Shown here piece by piece: positions 7,867-36,338 of a stretch of DNA of 56,973 nt. The notes beneath the pieces are model-generated. The model saw only the letters and a program-made list of their open reading frames with translations, had not been told where the DNA came from and did not search any database. Numbering within the stretch: position 1 is the stretch's first letter; every line of letters starts with the position of its first letter. The position numbers and the translations under genes are program-made. Source of the stretch: a virus (Duplodnaviria; Caudoviricetes); the IMG/VR virus record IMGVR_UViG_3300026546_000005, positions 1 to 56,973 of that record; one strand, 5' to 3'.

Positions 7867-10800
7867 TATTTTAAATTTAAAAGTTTTTTAATTTCATTTA
7901 ATTCATTTTTTAAATAATTAATTTCTTGTTCTTGTTCTTTTATTTTATTATTTAATTCTTTAATTGCTGCAGTATTATAAGGAATTATTTCAGTATATCT
8001 AATTCCTTTATACATTTTATTATCTTCTAAACTTTCGTGTTCATTAATAATATGTGGAATAATTTCTTCAACTTCTTGAGCAATGAATCCATTATGTAAT
8101 ACGCCAGGTTTATTAATAAATTCAAATGAAACAGGATTTAATTGTTCAATAATATTTAATGATTCATTTGAATTTATATTTGTGATATTTTTCTTGATTC
8201 GTATATCAGATGATATTGATGACGAATATGCAATTACATCTCCATCTGCATGAAAATCACCATCAGATTCAAATCTAAATTTTTCAGAATTATTAATAGT
8301 AACACCAATATCACTATTATTTATAAAAAAACCTGTATCAGAATTACTATTAAATGCTATAGATGGAGCATTTACAGATCCATCATCAAACTTATTTGTT
8401 CCATGACGGTGTGATGCTAATGCAAAAGCAGATGCATGTTTACCATCAACAGTGTCTGCATCTAAACCAGAATTAGAACCATCATTACCTTGATGCCAAA
8501 CTTTATATTGTGATGATTGTCCACCAGCGTATATTTCACCAGTAGTTATCATACCACCATATTGAATGTTAGTAAGATTTACTGTTGTTTTAGCAGTCAT
8601 ACTAGAATAATTACTAACGTCACCTGGATTTGTAGCGTCAGGTATAAAATTCTTTAATACCCAACCAGATGCTTGAAAATTATCACCTAATAAATATGCT
8701 ATTAAATCATTTGAGCTATCATTAACATATACTTGTAGAACTGCGCCATCATATGTTCCATTATCTTTTATTCTAATACTATTAAATACAGCACCACTAA
8801 ATTTAGAATAAGTAAGAACTGTAATTTCATTACTAGAATCAGTTCCATAGTGATGTGTTGCATAAAATATAGTTGCACTATGTCTACTTCCAGCAGTATC
8901 TCTTATTCCAAATCTTCCTATAGCTCTATCTCCAGTGTTTGTTGCTATTGTATACCAACCAGCATCTAAATTATCTGAAGCTTCAACTTGTATAGCCGTA
9001 TTATTATATAAATCCGATGCATGATAGCCATCAACTGTATCTGCATCTAATCCTGAACCAGAACCATCATTACCTGCATGCCATGCTTTATTTTCGTCAA
9101 TATATAGTCCTTTAGATCTTGTATTTATGTTTAATCTACCTTCACCGTCATTTTGTGCATAAATCATTGCATAATCTGCACCATTGAAATCACCATTCAT
9201 GCCATCAAAATAAATTGCTCCAGAATTATAAGTTGAATCACCTTTATAAATTCTTATTGCACCTTCATTAGTTAATGAACTTGGTATAGTAATATTATTA
9301 TCGACTGTTAAATTATGTAACCATGTACTATCATATGAACCAAATAATGTTTGACTTCCAGTTGGTTCTGTGGACGTTGGCATAGAATTCATAAAAAATT
9401 TATATCCATTTGGAATAGATGTTTTACCGCGAGATAATTCATAAACACTTGCACTTCTATATGAAGAGGTATTTTTTATCCACAATTCAGTTTTATAACT
9501 TGCAGTTCTAATTAATTTTATATCTGTTGCTGGATTTAAACCCCATGATGCTCTATCTGTACTTTTATTTCCAATTGTTTGTAATACAGTAAGATCAACA
9601 TGATTTGTATCCCAAACACCTTGATTATTATATCTTAAACCATAATGAAGCATTACATAACCACCATATGCTTCTCCTGATTGTATTATTAATACTCCAC
9701 CTTGATATGACCAAGCTGAACCGTGAAATTCACCTATTTTAACCCATTTATTAGAATTAGAACCAATATTATAAATATTACCAACATAATTTCCTCTATT
9801 ATATCTTATAACATAACCTCTATTATTATTTGTGTTTGTTAAAGTTCCTCTACTTGTTATAGTTACTGCATTTAAAATTGAAATTTTAGTTTTATATCTA
9901 ACATAATCATTACCTGTTAATGAACTATATTTTAAATAAAACCAATATTTATTAGAATCATTACTATCTGTGTATATATCAAATAAAAATGGATTTTCAT
10001 CTTTGCTATCAGATAAAACTAATACATCACACGTTACTTTACCATTATAATCAACAGTATAATTAATAATATAAGATCCATGTCTTGTATCAAGATGAAT
10101 TGTTTCTGATATAATTCCATTACTTGATTTTATTAAACTACCGCCAGTTAAAACAATAGTATTTGGTGGAGATGAATCTAAACTAATTTCACCTGATATA
10201 TAACTCCATTTTTCTGGATTTGAATTAGCAGAAGTTAAAAATTTAACCCAGCTATCCCAACTATCTGTACCAGTTTTACCTCTCATCCACATATCATTTC
10301 TGCCTGTTGCATAACCTTCAAAATAAAACTGTTTTAATCTAGTATCACCATATCCAACATTCATAATGATTGGAACTCTTGCTGAATAGTGTGATAAAGT
10401 TCCATAAGGTGTATTAGTAACTTCACCTCCTCCGGTATCAGCGCTCCAAAAACCATTTCTTAATAATGCATCATTAACGTTTCTATTTGGTATACTACCT
10501 CTATTTCTTAGTAAATATAAATCATTACCTCGATGCCAAACTTCTTTATAAGATCCATCATAATCAATCATTAATTTCAATTTAGTGTTAGTTGGATTTC
10601 CATTTGAATCTGCTGGATATATTCTATGTTCATTACTAGCAGAATTATAATATGATTTAGACATATTTTTTGTTCCATCTTGTAAATATATAACACTACT
10701 TAAATATAAACTGGATCCTTTTATATTACCATTTACATCTAATTTTTGTGATGGATTATTAATACCGATTCCAACATCTCCGCCTACATACATACCTTTA

Positions 10801-30883: not shown

Positions 30884-30978
30884 GGATGGGTTATCCGAAA
30901 GATTGCAGGGTACCGGAAACGGTCTTGAAAACCGTTACCGCCTCGTCGGCGGTGTGGGTTCGAATCCCACCTCATCCG
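30884..30978 (+). tRNA. tRNA-Ser(UGA), enlarged D loop
   Basis: GGATGGG/CTCATCC acceptor, ACGGT-CTTGAAA-ACCGT, long variable arm, TTCGAAT. Confidence 0.85.
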
Positions 30979-33347: not shown

Positions 33348-34931
33348 ATGGCTAAATTTAACAAAAAAACAGAAAAAGAGACTCTTATTAATGACATGGG
33401 TCAAAAAGCATTCAAACTTTCTCCAAAGGAAGAGTTAATATCAACTGTATTAACTACATTTGTTACTAATTCATTTTATGAATCAGAAAACGAAATATTG
33501 GATAGAATTCGTAAAGCCATGTCAAAATGCGATACTGAATTTGTCGCAAAGACTGCTTTATACACAAGACGTGATGCAAATATGCGTAGTTCATCACACG
33601 TGTTAGCTGGCGAATTAGCACAACGTGCAGCAGGAAAGGAATGGGCTAAAAGATTCTACAAAAATATTTGTGTTCGTCCTGATGATATGGCAGAAATTTT
33701 GGGTTATTACTTAAATGTAATTCGTGAAGGTTCTGATGGTAAAAAAATACCTAATTCAATGAAAAAAGGATTTAAAGCTAAACTTGAATCTTTAGATCCA
33801 TATTTAATTGACAAATATAAAATGAAAAGACGCGCAATTAAGTTAATTGATTTAGTTAATTTATTTCATCCAAAACCAAATGAAAAAAATGCTGAAGCAT
33901 TTAAACGTTTACGTGATGGTATGCCTTTAGATGATCTTTATACTTCTAAAATTCTTGAAAAAGAAATGTCTAAAGCCGGACAAAACACAGAAGATAAAAA
34001 AGAAGCTAAAGCAACTGCTATTCGTGAAACATTAACTGCGAATGAAAGTAAGTCACCAATTTTTAACTTAGTTAGAAATTTACGTAACATACTTGAAAGC
34101 ACACCAGATATGGTTGATGATGTAGTAACAAACATTACAAATCGTGATAAAATTTTAAAATCACGCATGTTACCATTTAGATTTGCAACTGCATATGCTG
34201 AAGTTGAAAAACTTAATGCAGTTGATAGAGACGCAAAAACTAAAGTTTTAAATGCACTTGAAACTGCAATTAATTACTCATGTGAAAATATTCCTGAGTT
34301 ATTTGGTAATACTGCTATATTAATTGACCATTCAGGTTCAATGAGAGGTAGTAACGGTAGTGGATCATCAAAAGTATCTGCATTTTCAGATGTAACAACA
34401 TCTATTATTGCTAATTTATTTGGAGTAATGCTAATGCAATCTCAAGATAATGTATACATGGGATTATTTGGTGACAGACTTGTAACAGTAAAAGACATTG
34501 ATCGTTCAAAAGGTGTTTTAAAAACACATAAAGAAGTTCATAAATTAGGTTCAACATGTGGCCTTAGTTCAGAACATGGTTTATTCGAGTTTTTTGCTGA
34601 CGTTGTTAGACATAGAGTTAGAGTTGATAATGTTATCATATTTTCAGATATGGTAATTGGTTCTAACAGCTGGTATGGTCGCGGATCAATTGGGGACATT
34701 AGAACAGGTTCTGGATCGTTTAATTCATTGTTTAAACGCTTTAAAGAACTAAATCCTTTAGCAAATATAGTATCAGTAAACTTACATGATACTAAAGGAA
34801 CAACAGTCTTTAATAAAAAACTTGGTGTTACTCAAATTTCTGGATGGTCTGAAAAGATTTTTGATGTATTGAAAAATATGTCTAAAGGTTATGAAGATAT
34901 AATTGCAGAAATTGAAGCAATTAAACTTTAA
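33348..34931 (+). CDS. Ro60/Rsr-like TROVE-domain RNA-binding protein
   Basis: G..AF.LSP..EL, FYE, ALY.R....MR, RPDD, KY, L.DL..L.HPKP, LVRNLRN, SR.LPFRF, vWA DHSGSM. Confidence 0.9.
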   Translation: MAKFNKKTEKETLINDMGQKAFKLSPKEELISTVLTTFVTNSFYESENEILDRIRKAMSKCDTEFVAKTALYTRRDANMRSSSHVLAGELAQRAAGKEWAKRFYKNICVRPDDMAEILGYYLNVIREGSDGKKIPNSMKKGFKAKLESLDPYLIDKYKMKRRAIKLIDLVNLFHPKPNEKNAEAFKRLRDGMPLDDLYTSKILEKEMSKAGQNTEDKKEAKATAIRETLTANESKSPIFNLVRNLRNILESTPDMVDDVVTNITNRDKILKSRMLPFRFATAYAEVEKLNAVDRDAKTKVLNALETAINYSCENIPELFGNTAILIDHSGSMRGSNGSGSSKVSAFSDVTTSIIANLFGVMLMQSQDNVYMGLFGDRLVTVKDIDRSKGVLKTHKEVHKLGSTCGLSSEHGLFEFFADVVRHRVRVDNVIIFSDMVIGSNSWYGRGSIGDIRTGSGSFNSLFKRFKELNPLANIVSVNLHDTKGTTVFNKKLGVTQISGWSEKIFDVLKNMSKGYEDIIAEIEAIKL

Positions 34932-34933
34932 AA

Positions 34934-34963
34934 AAGGAGAGGAATTTTATATTCCTCTCTCTT
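34934..34963 (+). terminator. Hairpin / probable terminator after TROVE
   Basis: GGAGAGGAAT/ATTCCTCTCT; weak U tract. Confidence 0.55.
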
Positions 34964-35005
34964 AAAAAAATAAAACAAATATTTTTATTTTAATGTAAAA
35001 TATAT

Positions 35006-35013
35006 TATATTTG
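35006..35013 (+). promoter_or_regulatory. TAnnTTTG promoter of the Y-RNA-like cluster
   Basis: TATATTTG 7 nt before the first stem. Confidence 0.7.
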
Positions 35014-35020
35014 TAAAAAC

Positions 35021-35103
35021 AAACTAAAGATAGTAAGTTTAAAAGTTACATCGTTTATAGGGGAAATAACAATTCACTTTTAACATTAAATCTTCTTTAG
35101 TTT
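35021..35103 (+). ncRNA. Y-RNA-like element 1 (no tRNA domain)
   Basis: AAACTAAAGA/TCTTTAGTTT outer stem, TAGT, TTAAAAGT/ACTTTTAA inner stem, TACATCG motif; downstream of Ro60. Confidence 0.65.
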
Positions 35104-35131
35104 AAAAAACGATCTTTAATATAAATGACAT

Positions 35132-35272
35132 AAATAAGATAGTGAGTAATTTTATTACATCGAGAACAATTAGCTTAGTTGGTTGAGCACTGCCCTTTCA
35201 CGGTAGAGGTCGTCGGTTCGATCCCGACATTATTCTATAAATACATATAAAATTACAGCATTCTTCTTATTT
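35132..35272 (+). ncRNA. Y-RNA-like element 2 enclosing a complete tRNA-Glu(UUC)-like cloverleaf (35164-35236)
   Basis: AAATAAGA/TCTTATTT, GTAATTTTAT/ATAAAATTAC, TACATCG; CTGCC-CTTTCAC-GGTAG; GTCGG-TTCGATC-CCGAC. Confidence 0.7.
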
Positions 35273-35281
35273 TTTCAACTT

Positions 35282-35419
35282 GGCGAGGACAGACAACACA
35301 TTAATATTAAACGTTCTCTGTTCATAGTAGTAATAATATTAATTACATCGATTAGCGATATTGGTTTCGCACCTTGGTTTTGGTCCAAGTCTATGCGGGT
35401 TCGATTCCCGCCCTCGCCG
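35282..35419 (+). ncRNA. Element 3: tRNA-Gln(UUG)-like RNA with the Y domain inserted between the acceptor 5' strand and the D arm
   Basis: GGCGAGG(35282-88)/CCTCGCC(35412-18); insert with ATTAATATTA/TAATATTAAT, TAGT, TACATCG; CTTGG-TTTTGGT-CCAAG. Confidence 0.7.
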
Positions 35420-35426
35420 CGAATTT

Positions 35427-35570
35427 TAAAGTTGGATAGTGATAAAAAACGTTACTTCGTAGCTCAGATGGGTAGAGCAATTGACTGCAGATCAATGGGT
35501 CGTTGGTTCAACTCCAACCGAAAACGTTAATTCGTTTTCTTCACGTTTTTTAAACGTACTTCCAACTTTA
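35427..35570 (+). ncRNA. Y-RNA-like element 4 with tRNA-Cys(GCA)-like D, anticodon and T arms and a loop-closed acceptor-like hairpin
   Basis: TAAAGTTGGA/TCCAACTTTA, TAAAAAACGT/ACGTTTTTTA, TACTTCG; ATTGA-CTGCAGA-TCAAT; GAAAACG/CGTTTTC. Confidence 0.7.
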
Positions 35571-35588: not shown

Positions 35589-36338
35589 ATGAAAGTTAAA
35601 AAACAAACAGAGCAAACATTTAAATTTGTAAAATCTATAAAATTTGGTAGAACTGACTTACCAACACTTGTTTTTATATTTGGTTATCCGTTTAAAATAA
35701 AGGAACATTTTAATTATGACGGAAATTTTTATTATATTGATAGTCATTATAATAAAGCATTAGTTTATCCGTCTCCTTTTTTAAATATAAAAGATTTATC
35801 ACGTGTAATTGCTAAAGAATTATTATCTAAATTAAAAACTTCAGATGTAGTTTTAGTTGGTTACTCTCTTGGTGCAGTATATTCATTAGAAATATCTAAA
35901 ATATTAGAAGAAAATAATATTAATGTAAAATTACAATTATTAATTGATCCAATTGATACAATATATAATTTTAATACTAAATTATACAATAAATTAAGAT
36001 ATTCTTTTTGTTTTACTGCTTTATTTAGTCGATATTTAATATTTAGTTTTTTAGTAAAATTGCAAAACATATTTAATTTTAAAATTATTACTAGATCAAT
36101 TTATATTAATTCAGTGTATAGAATACATTTATTACGCTATAATTTTTCTTATAATAATATAAATACAATTTTAATTAAAAACTCTACTAATTGTAATAAA
36201 ACTAAATATAGTTGGATTGATATTTTTAAAAAAGATAATATTGATTTAAAAGTGTTTAATGCTAAAAAACATTCTGATTTTTTCTTTAATGAAAGTATAT
36301 TAAAAAAATGGATTAATATACTAAAATTAAATATATAA
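35589..36338 (+). CDS. Stand-alone thioesterase (alpha/beta hydrolase), paralog of the NRPS TE domain; start revised to ATG 35589
   Basis: GYSLG, LIDP, KKHSDFF; NYDG.FYYIDSHYN shared with the 55357 protein. Confidence 0.75.
   Translation: MKVKKQTEQTFKFVKSIKFGRTDLPTLVFIFGYPFKIKEHFNYDGNFYYIDSHYNKALVYPSPFLNIKDLSRVIAKELLSKLKTSDVVLVGYSLGAVYSLEISKILEENNINVKLQLLIDPIDTIYNFNTKLYNKLRYSFCFTALFSRYLIFSFLVKLQNIFNFKIITRSIYINSVYRIHLLRYNFSYNNINTILIKNSTNCNKTKYSWIDIFKKDNIDLKVFNAKKHSDFFFNESILKKWINILKLNI

Follow-up and report, generated by a model that had tools for sequence, protein, structure and literature searches.

Results

The Rsr gene and the array downstream

The stretch of DNA analysed here, hereafter referred to as the window, is a virus record of 56973 bases with a G+C content of 24.6%, in which ARAGORN detects 10 tRNAs, none of them for Gln or Cys. 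At gathering thresholds, Rfam yields matches of the tRNA clan only over the whole window (10 with the tRNA model and 1 with tRNA-Sec). Upstream of the region of interest lies a gene coding for a homologue of Ro60/Rsr (Table 1), the product of which matches the Pfam TROVE domain with an E-value of 2.9e-14 (53.5 bits) and VWA_2 with 23.3 bits, that is, under the cut-off of 27. Scoring of 8000 candidates yielded 1209 homologues of the window Rsr at E <= 0.001 with a top identity of 93%, and the closest Rsr proteins (P0001-P0022) share 57-93% identity with it. With the window Rsr as the sole query, the viral contig collection returned no match, and blastn against the phage collection gave short matches only, to 4 records.

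Four non-coding elements follow 3' of the Rsr gene on the same strand (+), the first one beginning 93 nt downstream, and the spacers between the elements of this array measure 9-10 nt. No ORF of at least 50 aa is present between the Rsr stop codon and position 35480 (34932-35480), and a Pfam survey of 17 neighbouring ORFs revealed no RNA-repair, ligase or nuclease gene adjoining the array. Element 1 carries the box and the motif of the family described below. Element 2 encloses a tRNA-Glu, scoring 57.7 bits against the Rfam tRNA model, within a Y module whose inner stem (35146-35154 / 35248-35256) forms 8/8 pairs.

Table 1. Coordinates of the Rsr gene and of the parts of the four non-coding elements in the window.
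Feature	Position	Strand	Description
Ro60/Rsr homologue	33348-34931	+	527 aa; TROVE and vWA-like domain; presumed protein partner
Element 1	35024-35100	+	Simple Y RNA; plain stem-loop of outer stem, box, inner stem and motif, without tRNA body
Element 2	35133-35271	+	Terminal Y module around a whole tRNA-Glu(UUC); tRNA at 35163-35237 (ARAGORN)
Element 3	35282-35419	+	tRNA-Gln(UUG)-like RNA ending on the acceptor stem, capped Y module inside
Element 3, insert (Y module)	35289-35352	+	Exactly 64 nt, between tRNA positions 7 and 8
Element 3, inner-stem strands	35301-35309 (3' strand), 35334-35342 (5' strand)	+	9/9 pairs
Element 3, cap hairpin CTG-TTCA-TAG	35318-35327	+	3 bp, 4-nt loop
Element 3, box	35328-35333	+	
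Element 3, motif	35343-35350	+	
Element 3, tRNA body	35355-35370 (D arm), 35373-35389 (anticodon arm, UUG), 35395-35411 (T arm)	+	ARAGORN cloverleaf
Element 4	35429-35568	+	tRNA-Cys(GCA)-like body with a terminal Y module attached at nt 7/8
Element 4, outer stem	35429-35436 / 35561-35568	+	8 bp
Element 4, box	35437-35442	+	
Element 4, inner stem	35444-35452 / 35543-35551	+	9 bp
Element 4, motif	35452-35459	+	Followed by T-A, then directly by the D arm
Element 4, arms	35462-35478 (D), 35480-35496 (anticodon, GCA), 35502-35518 (T)	+	
Element 4, closed acceptor hairpin	35520-35526 / 35533-35539	+	7 bp; 6-nt loop 35527-35532

A bipartite Y module linked to Rsr

Elements 1-4 have a bipartite Y module in common, which consists of the box TAGTRR, 8-10 variable bases and the motif TTACNTCG. 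When the window is taken together with a comparison set of 160 loci encoding Rsr relatives (80 viral and 80 metagenomic), the pattern of box plus motif occurs in 134 of the 161 sources, and every time on the strand of the Rsr gene. An additional match at position 10508 of the window is read as chance. For 49 elements with distinct 8-nt strands, a perfect 8/8 downstream inner-stem partner (Watson-Crick, within 230 nt) was found in 11 cases, compared with 14 of 980 shuffled-strand controls; with at least 7/8 pairs the corresponding counts are 25/49 and 151/980. Since the variable bases have a pairing strand that changes along with them, the module consists of outer stem, internal loop, inner stem and motif, and the box faces a short, T/C-rich 3' loop across the internal loop. 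Ro-binding motifs are given as GGUCCGA in animals and as GNCGAAN0-1G or CGAA in bacteria and phages in PMC4201824 and PMC12135203; the motif TTACNTCG shares only a UCG core with these and does not match the published Rsr motif GNCGAAN0-1G.

Element 3: a capped Y module within an acceptor-ended tRNA-like RNA

The initial annotation of this locus had element 3 open at a true acceptor stem, and nucleotides 35282-35288 and 35412-35418 do form 7/7 Watson-Crick pairs; they are followed by a G at 35419, 3' of which no CCA is encoded. The same annotation described the Y domain as a 64-nt insert after nt 7, with its halves in reversed order and closed by a cap hairpin. This description proved accurate to the nucleotide in length, with the complete inner stem and the cap both in place: the 3' strand of the inner stem precedes its 5' strand, and the insert is an ordinary Y module whose opening lies at the inner stem, the outer stem being closed.

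In its native form, element 3 is called as a tRNA neither by ARAGORN at default settings nor by the Rfam tRNA model, which gives no match. Once the 64-nt insert is removed in silico, ARAGORN reports a tRNA-Gln(ttg) of 75 nt that folds into a normal cloverleaf. The match to tmRNA (RF00023) covers the T arm only (35360-35412) and scores 18.3 bits, below the gathering score of 47. Element 3 has a folding z-score of -4.22, none of 200 shuffles being equally stable, and its 9/9 upstream partner was attained by 65 of 20000 shuffles. Among the 49 elements, it alone possesses a perfect 8/8 partner upstream (control 3/980). The inner stem is made up of A and U only and is nearly palindromic, and the nearest-neighbour model places the minimum-energy structure, with local hairpins, at -41.7 kcal/mol versus -37.9 kcal/mol for the Y fold. 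The initial annotation held that element 3, with its open acceptor end, could be CCA-tailed and charged; it might be, the YrlA of M. smegmatis being the only precedent (PMC4201824).

Capped elements in other phages

A covariance model, R1, was built from 8 capped modules of 7 other loci (L082, L083 with two, L084, L091, L094, L103 and L104), with the window left out. In the underlying alignment, 85.4% of the cells are paired, and sliding the partner by 1-3 columns lowers this value to 41-52%; both sides vary in 8 of the 12 pairs, and the covariation score was attained by 0/500 shuffles. A MAFFT alignment of the 5' parts including the window (A2) had the inner stem out of register and was excluded from the counts. 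The top match of R1 in the window is the insert of element 3 (35298-35350; 32.1 bits, rough E-value 4.1e-5), which is matched over the full model, positions 1-52, with no non-standard pair. Element 3 combines the R1 match, the 7/7 acceptor and the T arm by which the class of capped-Y, acceptor-ended RNAs is defined here, and the class is represented in 7 of the 160 related Rsr loci.

Acceptor-ended capped-Y RNAs with G/C-rich acceptor stems are present in L082, L083 (two), L084, L091 and L094. The acceptor reaches 7/7 pairs by script in four of these six elements; those of the second L083 element and of L094 show fewer pairs in the register used by the script, their full pairing being read by eye. 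A naive acceptor-partner search with G-U pairs allowed proved too noisy for A/T-rich 7-mers, with most elements tying at 6/7 in several places, and was set aside. The single-element shuffle tests of the upstream inner-stem partner are weak for some relatives (for example, 17370/20000 and 9835/20000 for the two L083 elements). In most of the six, one hairpin, followed by the T arm, stands where a tRNA has its D and anticodon arms, and the only complete tRNA body within the capped class is that of element 3 in the window. In L103 and L104, the capped module replaces the anticodon loop of an acceptor-ended tRNA-like RNA.

A scan of the 160 loci with R1 gave no further clean capped example. Four lower matches (L006, L099, L082:4370-4463 and L112:2248-2318) span 71-94 nt, compared with 50-75 nt in the training set, and were read as junction artefacts. 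For L082 and L112 this follows from the coordinates, which take in the 3' half of one ordinary element and the 5' half of the one after it; the matches in L006 and L099 were judged from span and score alone.

Element 4: a terminal Y module and a closed acceptor

For element 4, a loop-closed hairpin had been proposed at the acceptor position. The hairpin, which is separated by 3 nt from the 3' strand of the inner stem, is found with 7 bp and is retained in both minimum-energy folds, i.e., the unconstrained one (-40.5 kcal/mol) and the one constrained to the Y stems and arms (-36.7 kcal/mol). A 7-bp hairpin straight after the T arm arises in 125 of 200000 shuffles of the 33-nt stretch, and the folding z-score of the entire element is -4.37 (0/200 shuffles equally stable). 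The core scores 51.9 bits against the Rfam tRNA model (35456-35522, model positions 4-67). ARAGORN makes no tRNA call on the native sequence and reports a tRNA-Cys(gca) once the downstream strand of the hairpin is moved in silico to a place before the D arm. Element 4 carries G both at the discriminator position and at position 37, which, judged by the identity rules of E. coli, is atypical for tRNA-Cys; charging of element 4 is doubtful. All in all, every sequence feature named in the initial annotation for elements 3 and 4 is present, at most one base away from where it had been placed.

An alternative fold, in which a bulged acceptor stem would form with the conserved motif, had also been put forward as a possible switch. 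As a pairing it is indeed possible on paper (two runs of 4 bp around a 2-nt bulge), but as a switch it fares poorly: explicit folds with the Y stems and cloverleaf arms yield -33.2 kcal/mol with the acceptor hairpin, -25.0 kcal/mol without acceptor pairing, and -20.4 to -23.8 kcal/mol with the bulged acceptor.

In a second sequencing run, a 235-nt contig covers 35393-35626 with 98% identity (4 other letters and 1 gap). Element 4 is retained in this near relative, and the contig provides no informative covariation. The arrangement of element 4 is found in none of the 160 other Rsr loci, and the acceptor hairpin is therefore without covariation support. We also attached a synthetic acceptor strand 0-3 nt 3' of the motif in 181 motif contexts (552 constructs), counting those for which a tRNA call used the synthetic strand and no call came from the native strand. 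A D arm straight after the motif was found in elements 3 and 4 of the window and in L083:4644 only. Some gut-phage elements gave a tRNA call with the synthetic strand at offset 3, yet with a native call too.

In the viral contigs, a motif abutting a D arm was found at at least 118 loci; 9 matches passed the box filter, with none of the element 4 kind among the matches listed. One of the nine, L266, appears Y module-like by eye. A fixed-spacing pattern gave 0 matches in the same contigs, and a scan for box, gap and motif gave at least 116 matches in at least 115 loci, of which the one passing the partner filter was rejected as chance-like. In L084, L091 and L094, the next element after the capped acceptor-ended one is Y-ended and has a closed acceptor hairpin of 7-8 bp, its parts being ordered T arm, acceptor, D arm and anticodon arm. 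Element 4 therefore occupies the place that a YrlA-like element has in these relatives, with a different junction.

One topology in two circular permutations

Read as circles, elements 3 and 4 have the same order of parts, as had been proposed: the 5' strand of the acceptor, the 3' strand of the inner stem, the 3' loop and the outer stem or cap are followed by the box, the 5' strand of the inner stem, the motif, the D, anticodon and T arms and the 3' strand of the acceptor. The 3' loops of the two elements are one letter apart. The motif-bearing stem is terminal, formed by the chain ends, in element 4, and internal and capped in element 3, where it is recognised by the model built from other phages. 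These features support the view that elements 3 and 4 represent a single Y-module/tRNA topology in two circular permutations. Alignment of element 4 onto element 3 scores 70.5 after permutation and 57.5 in native order, which is only weakly above shuffles (51.4 +/- 7.9, maximum 77); the exact offset ranks 17 of 140, and the best 8 offsets lie at 88-102.

Discussion

The evidence collected here suggests that elements 3 and 4 are probably phage Y RNAs with tRNA-mimic domains, which are encoded in a four-gene array and act as partners of the Ro60/Rsr protein encoded upstream. Our best reading is to consider them YrlA-type RNAs in a topological variant that appears not to have been described before, with the case for element 4 resting on one lineage. 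The Y module, comprising the outer stem, the box TAGTRR, the covarying inner stem, the motif TTACNTCG and the 3' loop, would then be the presumed binding site for Rsr, and the tRNA-shaped body would presumably act as effector or mimic. Y module and tRNA body meet between tRNA positions 7 and 8 in either element, such that the point at which the chain is opened is all that differs. With spacers of 9-10 nt, the array may be transcribed as one precursor, from which element 3 would be freed in the fashion of a tRNA by RNase P and RNase Z acting at the minihelix of acceptor stem and T arm, with addition of CCA being possible. In element 4, an acceptor end would become free only through a cut of RNase P in the loop, as is the case for the YrlA RNA of M. 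smegmatis discussed below. It is tempting to speculate that the tRNA-shaped body connects Rsr with a partner that binds tRNA or degrades RNA, for instance PNPase, or that it protects the RNA.

The tRNA-like parts might alternatively serve mainly as processing punctuation, with RNase P and RNase Z cutting the minihelix of element 3 and the tRNA of element 2 so that the single Y RNAs are freed from a common precursor, and have no further role. Acceptor stem and T arm constitute the minimal substrate of these two enzymes, and it is precisely these parts alone that most of the six other capped elements have kept, their D and anticodon arms having given way to one hairpin. Moreover, the elements are separated by 9-10 nt with no ORF in between, and the Y RNAs of D. 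radiodurans are described in PMC4201824 as arising from a polycistronic precursor together with a tRNA. Such a role leaves unexplained, however, why elements 3 and 4 have complete D and anticodon arms with 7-nt loops and why the acceptor of element 4 is closed. As the sole role of the tRNA-like parts we judge punctuation unlikely, and it is compatible with, rather than exclusive of, their being Y RNAs with a mimic domain. That elements 3 and 4 are working decoding tRNAs for Gln and Cys, to which the Y module is attached as a removable or tolerated handle (serving, for example, Rsr-assisted folding, quality control or protection), would fit the absence of these two specificities from the 10 tRNAs of the window, the normal cloverleaves obtained with the Y module set aside, and the complete, releasable tRNA-Glu inside element 2. 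We nonetheless consider decoding very unlikely: we know of no bacterial splicing system that would remove an insert between nt 7 and 8, element 4 would remain in two pieces, its discriminator G and G37 are atypical for a tRNA-Cys, and most of the six other capped elements are devoid of the D and anticodon arms.

The confinement of the element 4 arrangement to one phage lineage, together with the duplication and rearrangement that tandem arrays favour, could also be taken to indicate that elements 3 and 4 are functionless, decaying tRNA genes broken by insertion or duplication of a Y element. Every helix is intact, however, with strong folding z-scores, 7 other loci conserve the capped class, with covariation, and element 4 is nearly unchanged in the second sequencing run, and decay is hence highly improbable. 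A conformational switch of element 4, in which the closed hairpin would alternate with a bulged acceptor stem involving the conserved motif, has in its favour the pairing described above. The bulged fold is less stable than the hairpin fold by 9.4-12.8 kcal/mol and less stable even than the fold without acceptor pairing, its full form costs 3 bp of the inner Y stem, and among the 181 motif contexts the arrangement of element 4 has no relatives that could provide covariation. With a penalty of 9-13 kcal/mol and part of the inner Y stem opened, the model does not favour a switch, which we regard as extremely improbable.

If elements 3 and 4 are indeed Y RNAs with tRNA-mimic domains, the acceptor-ended capped-Y RNAs, i.e., element 3 and its relatives, might even be matured like tRNAs, CCA-tailed and perhaps aminoacylated, which we consider quite unlikely. 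A phage Ro60 particle would then possess a live tRNA end, which could link Ro60 to aminoacyl-tRNA synthetases, EF-Tu or the ribosome, or could serve as bait or as a repair handle against host anticodon nucleases, an idea with which the intact anticodon loops for Glu, Gln and Cys would agree. The adjacent permutations with open and closed acceptor could in that case be regarded as 'on' and 'off' versions of one adaptor.

It was known before that Y RNAs can be tRNA-like, and that YrlA can be likened to a permuted tRNA; in all forms described so far, the Ro-binding stem is located at the chain ends and the acceptor is closed. What our analysis appears to add is (i) a conserved phage family in which a Ro-type module is found at several different points of the tRNA body, (ii) the existence of two forms of this module, a terminal stem and an internal arm closed by a cap, and (iii) two permutations of one junction (nt 7/8) adjoining each other in the window. 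With the acceptor-ended class, nature would provide a Y RNA that is in one piece and has a free end like that of a tRNA, and the long-open role of the tRNA mimic in bacterial Y RNAs, for which protection, processing and recruitment of tRNA-binding factors are candidates, should thereby become directly testable with defined RNAs. In the literature, we found neither an acceptor-ended Y RNA with an internal capped Ro-type module nor a description of two Y RNA permutations side by side; the list of YrlA-like RNAs from 22 phages in PMC4201824 may bear on this novelty.

Comparison with known systems

The phage family is missed by the current Rfam model of YrlA (RF02553), the match of which in the window scores 28.0 bits, compared with a gathering score of 69. 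Extending over the T arm of element 3 as far as the D arm of element 4, this match is a by-product of two adjacent tRNA-like bodies; in the relative L084, Rfam gives no YrlA match at E <= 1. Elements 3 and 4 lack the order of parts that characterises YrlA, in which T arm, closed acceptor and D arm follow each other between the two Y strands and the Y stem stands where a tRNA has its anticodon stem, and according to ARAGORN and Rfam neither of them is, in its native form, a tRNA in the sense of a contiguous cloverleaf with an acceptor formed by the chain ends.

As described by Chen et al. (2014, PMC4201824), YrlA RNAs adjoin Rsr in 254 bacterial species and 22 phages and mimic tRNA by means of a tRNA-like T arm, a closed acceptor, a D arm and the GNCGAAN0-1G motif, and a preprint (bioRxiv 10.1101/312249) likens most YrlAs to circularly permuted tRNAs. 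Like the elements of the window, YrlA, as portrayed there, is adjacent to Rsr on the same strand and modular, with an Rsr-binding stem and a tRNA-like domain, and like element 4 it has a closed acceptor hairpin and ends on the Y stem. However, its Y stem is at the position of the anticodon stem, its parts run from T arm through acceptor to D arm, and an anticodon loop is lacking, whereas elements 3 and 4 are joined at nt 7/8, run from D through anticodon to T arm, have a full anticodon arm and carry another motif. The YrlA of M. smegmatis, according to PMC4201824, has an acceptor stem of 7 bp, as have elements 3 and 4, is cleaved by RNase P and gains CCA. It shares with element 3 a free, tRNA-like acceptor end, which, however, results there from a cut in a closed loop that leaves two pieces; in element 3 the open acceptor is encoded directly, and the RNA remains in one piece because its Y stem is capped. 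Thermus phage phiLo likewise encodes a Ro60 with adjacent Y-like RNAs, and this Ro60 binds the Yrl1 and Yrl2 RNAs as well as host PNPase (2025, PMC12135203). Unlike in the window, the Yrl RNAs are located upstream of the gene, and the available text of that study mentions neither a tRNA-like domain nor a permutation.

Looking beyond Y RNAs, one and the same tRNA-like fold with different chain ends, as seen in elements 3 and 4, has parallels elsewhere. Permuted tRNA genes in a red alga give rise to a tRNA fold whose chain ends are placed differently, and the two-piece tmRNA (Rfam RF04321) provides a second example. In both cases the permutations are those of a single functional RNA across species, whereas in the window one array contains two permutations as neighbours, which are each combined with an additional, predicted protein-binding module.

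Enclosed tRNAs and tRNA-like bodies

Element 2 of the window's Y array (35133-35271) encloses a complete tRNA-Glu, which processing by RNase P and RNase Z would set free while leaving the Y module in two pieces; folded as a whole, the element is no more stable than its shuffles (z -0.39). Just ahead of a tRNA-Ser, positions 30884-30977 of the window match the Rfam tRNA-Sec model with 47.7 bits (gathering score 47), and ARAGORN called no tRNA there; this stretch may be a long-variable-arm tRNA.

Among the 160 loci encoding relatives of Rsr, the Ro60/TROVE homologue, there is a large group (L010-L080 and L116-L160, with many records from human-gut metagenomes) in which three Y elements lie close upstream of Rsr (e.g., L013:2495-2915). 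One of the three is YrlA-like, and the other two enclose tRNA-like bodies whose acceptor 5' strand begins within the motif of the Y module and whose anticodons are, according to ARAGORN, GTA or GTT, and TTT. In one gut-phage locus, a HEARO RNA (RF02033, 104.9 bits; L020:1485-1698) is located between the Y elements and Rsr, which points to an insertion of IS200/605 type within the array.

Flanks of the window array

A TAnnTTTG-like sequence (35008-35015), resembling the Bacteroidota -7 promoter element, lies a few bases ahead of the first Y element and recurs at the corresponding place in L084 and L094. It would be consistent with a host from the Bacteroidota and with a promoter of the array's own. 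For the ORF behind element 4, labelled thioesterase-like in the initial annotation, Pfam gave no match at E <= 0.01; it is curious that this ORF directly follows RNAs that might bear an acyl-acceptor end.

Y-ended and acceptor-ended relatives

Features of the window and of related loci
Feature	Locus	Position	Context
tRNA-like RNA	L103	438-565	directly upstream of Rsr
tRNA-like RNA	L104	962-1101	directly upstream of Rsr
Y-ended element, YrlA order	L084	4470-4625
Y-ended element, YrlA order	L091	2890-3050
Y-ended element, YrlA order	L094	3525-3690
Y-ended element, YrlA order	L083	3935-4075
Y-ended element, YrlA order	L112	2290-2445
ORF	window	35589-36338	start 20 nt past element 4

In the tabulated Y-ended elements, whose chain ends lie on the Y stem, the motif is followed by the T arm, a closed acceptor hairpin of 7-8 bp and the D arm, and several possess an extra anticodon-like hairpin ahead of the Y 3' strand. 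The L084 element does not match the Rfam YrlA model (RF02553) at E <= 1.

The RNAs of L103 and L104 have an open acceptor stem and both D and T arms, with a capped Y module replacing the anticodon loop. They are the exact circular permutation of canonical YrlA: in both arrangements the Y stem is placed on the anticodon stem, but the ends of the L103 and L104 RNAs lie on the acceptor.
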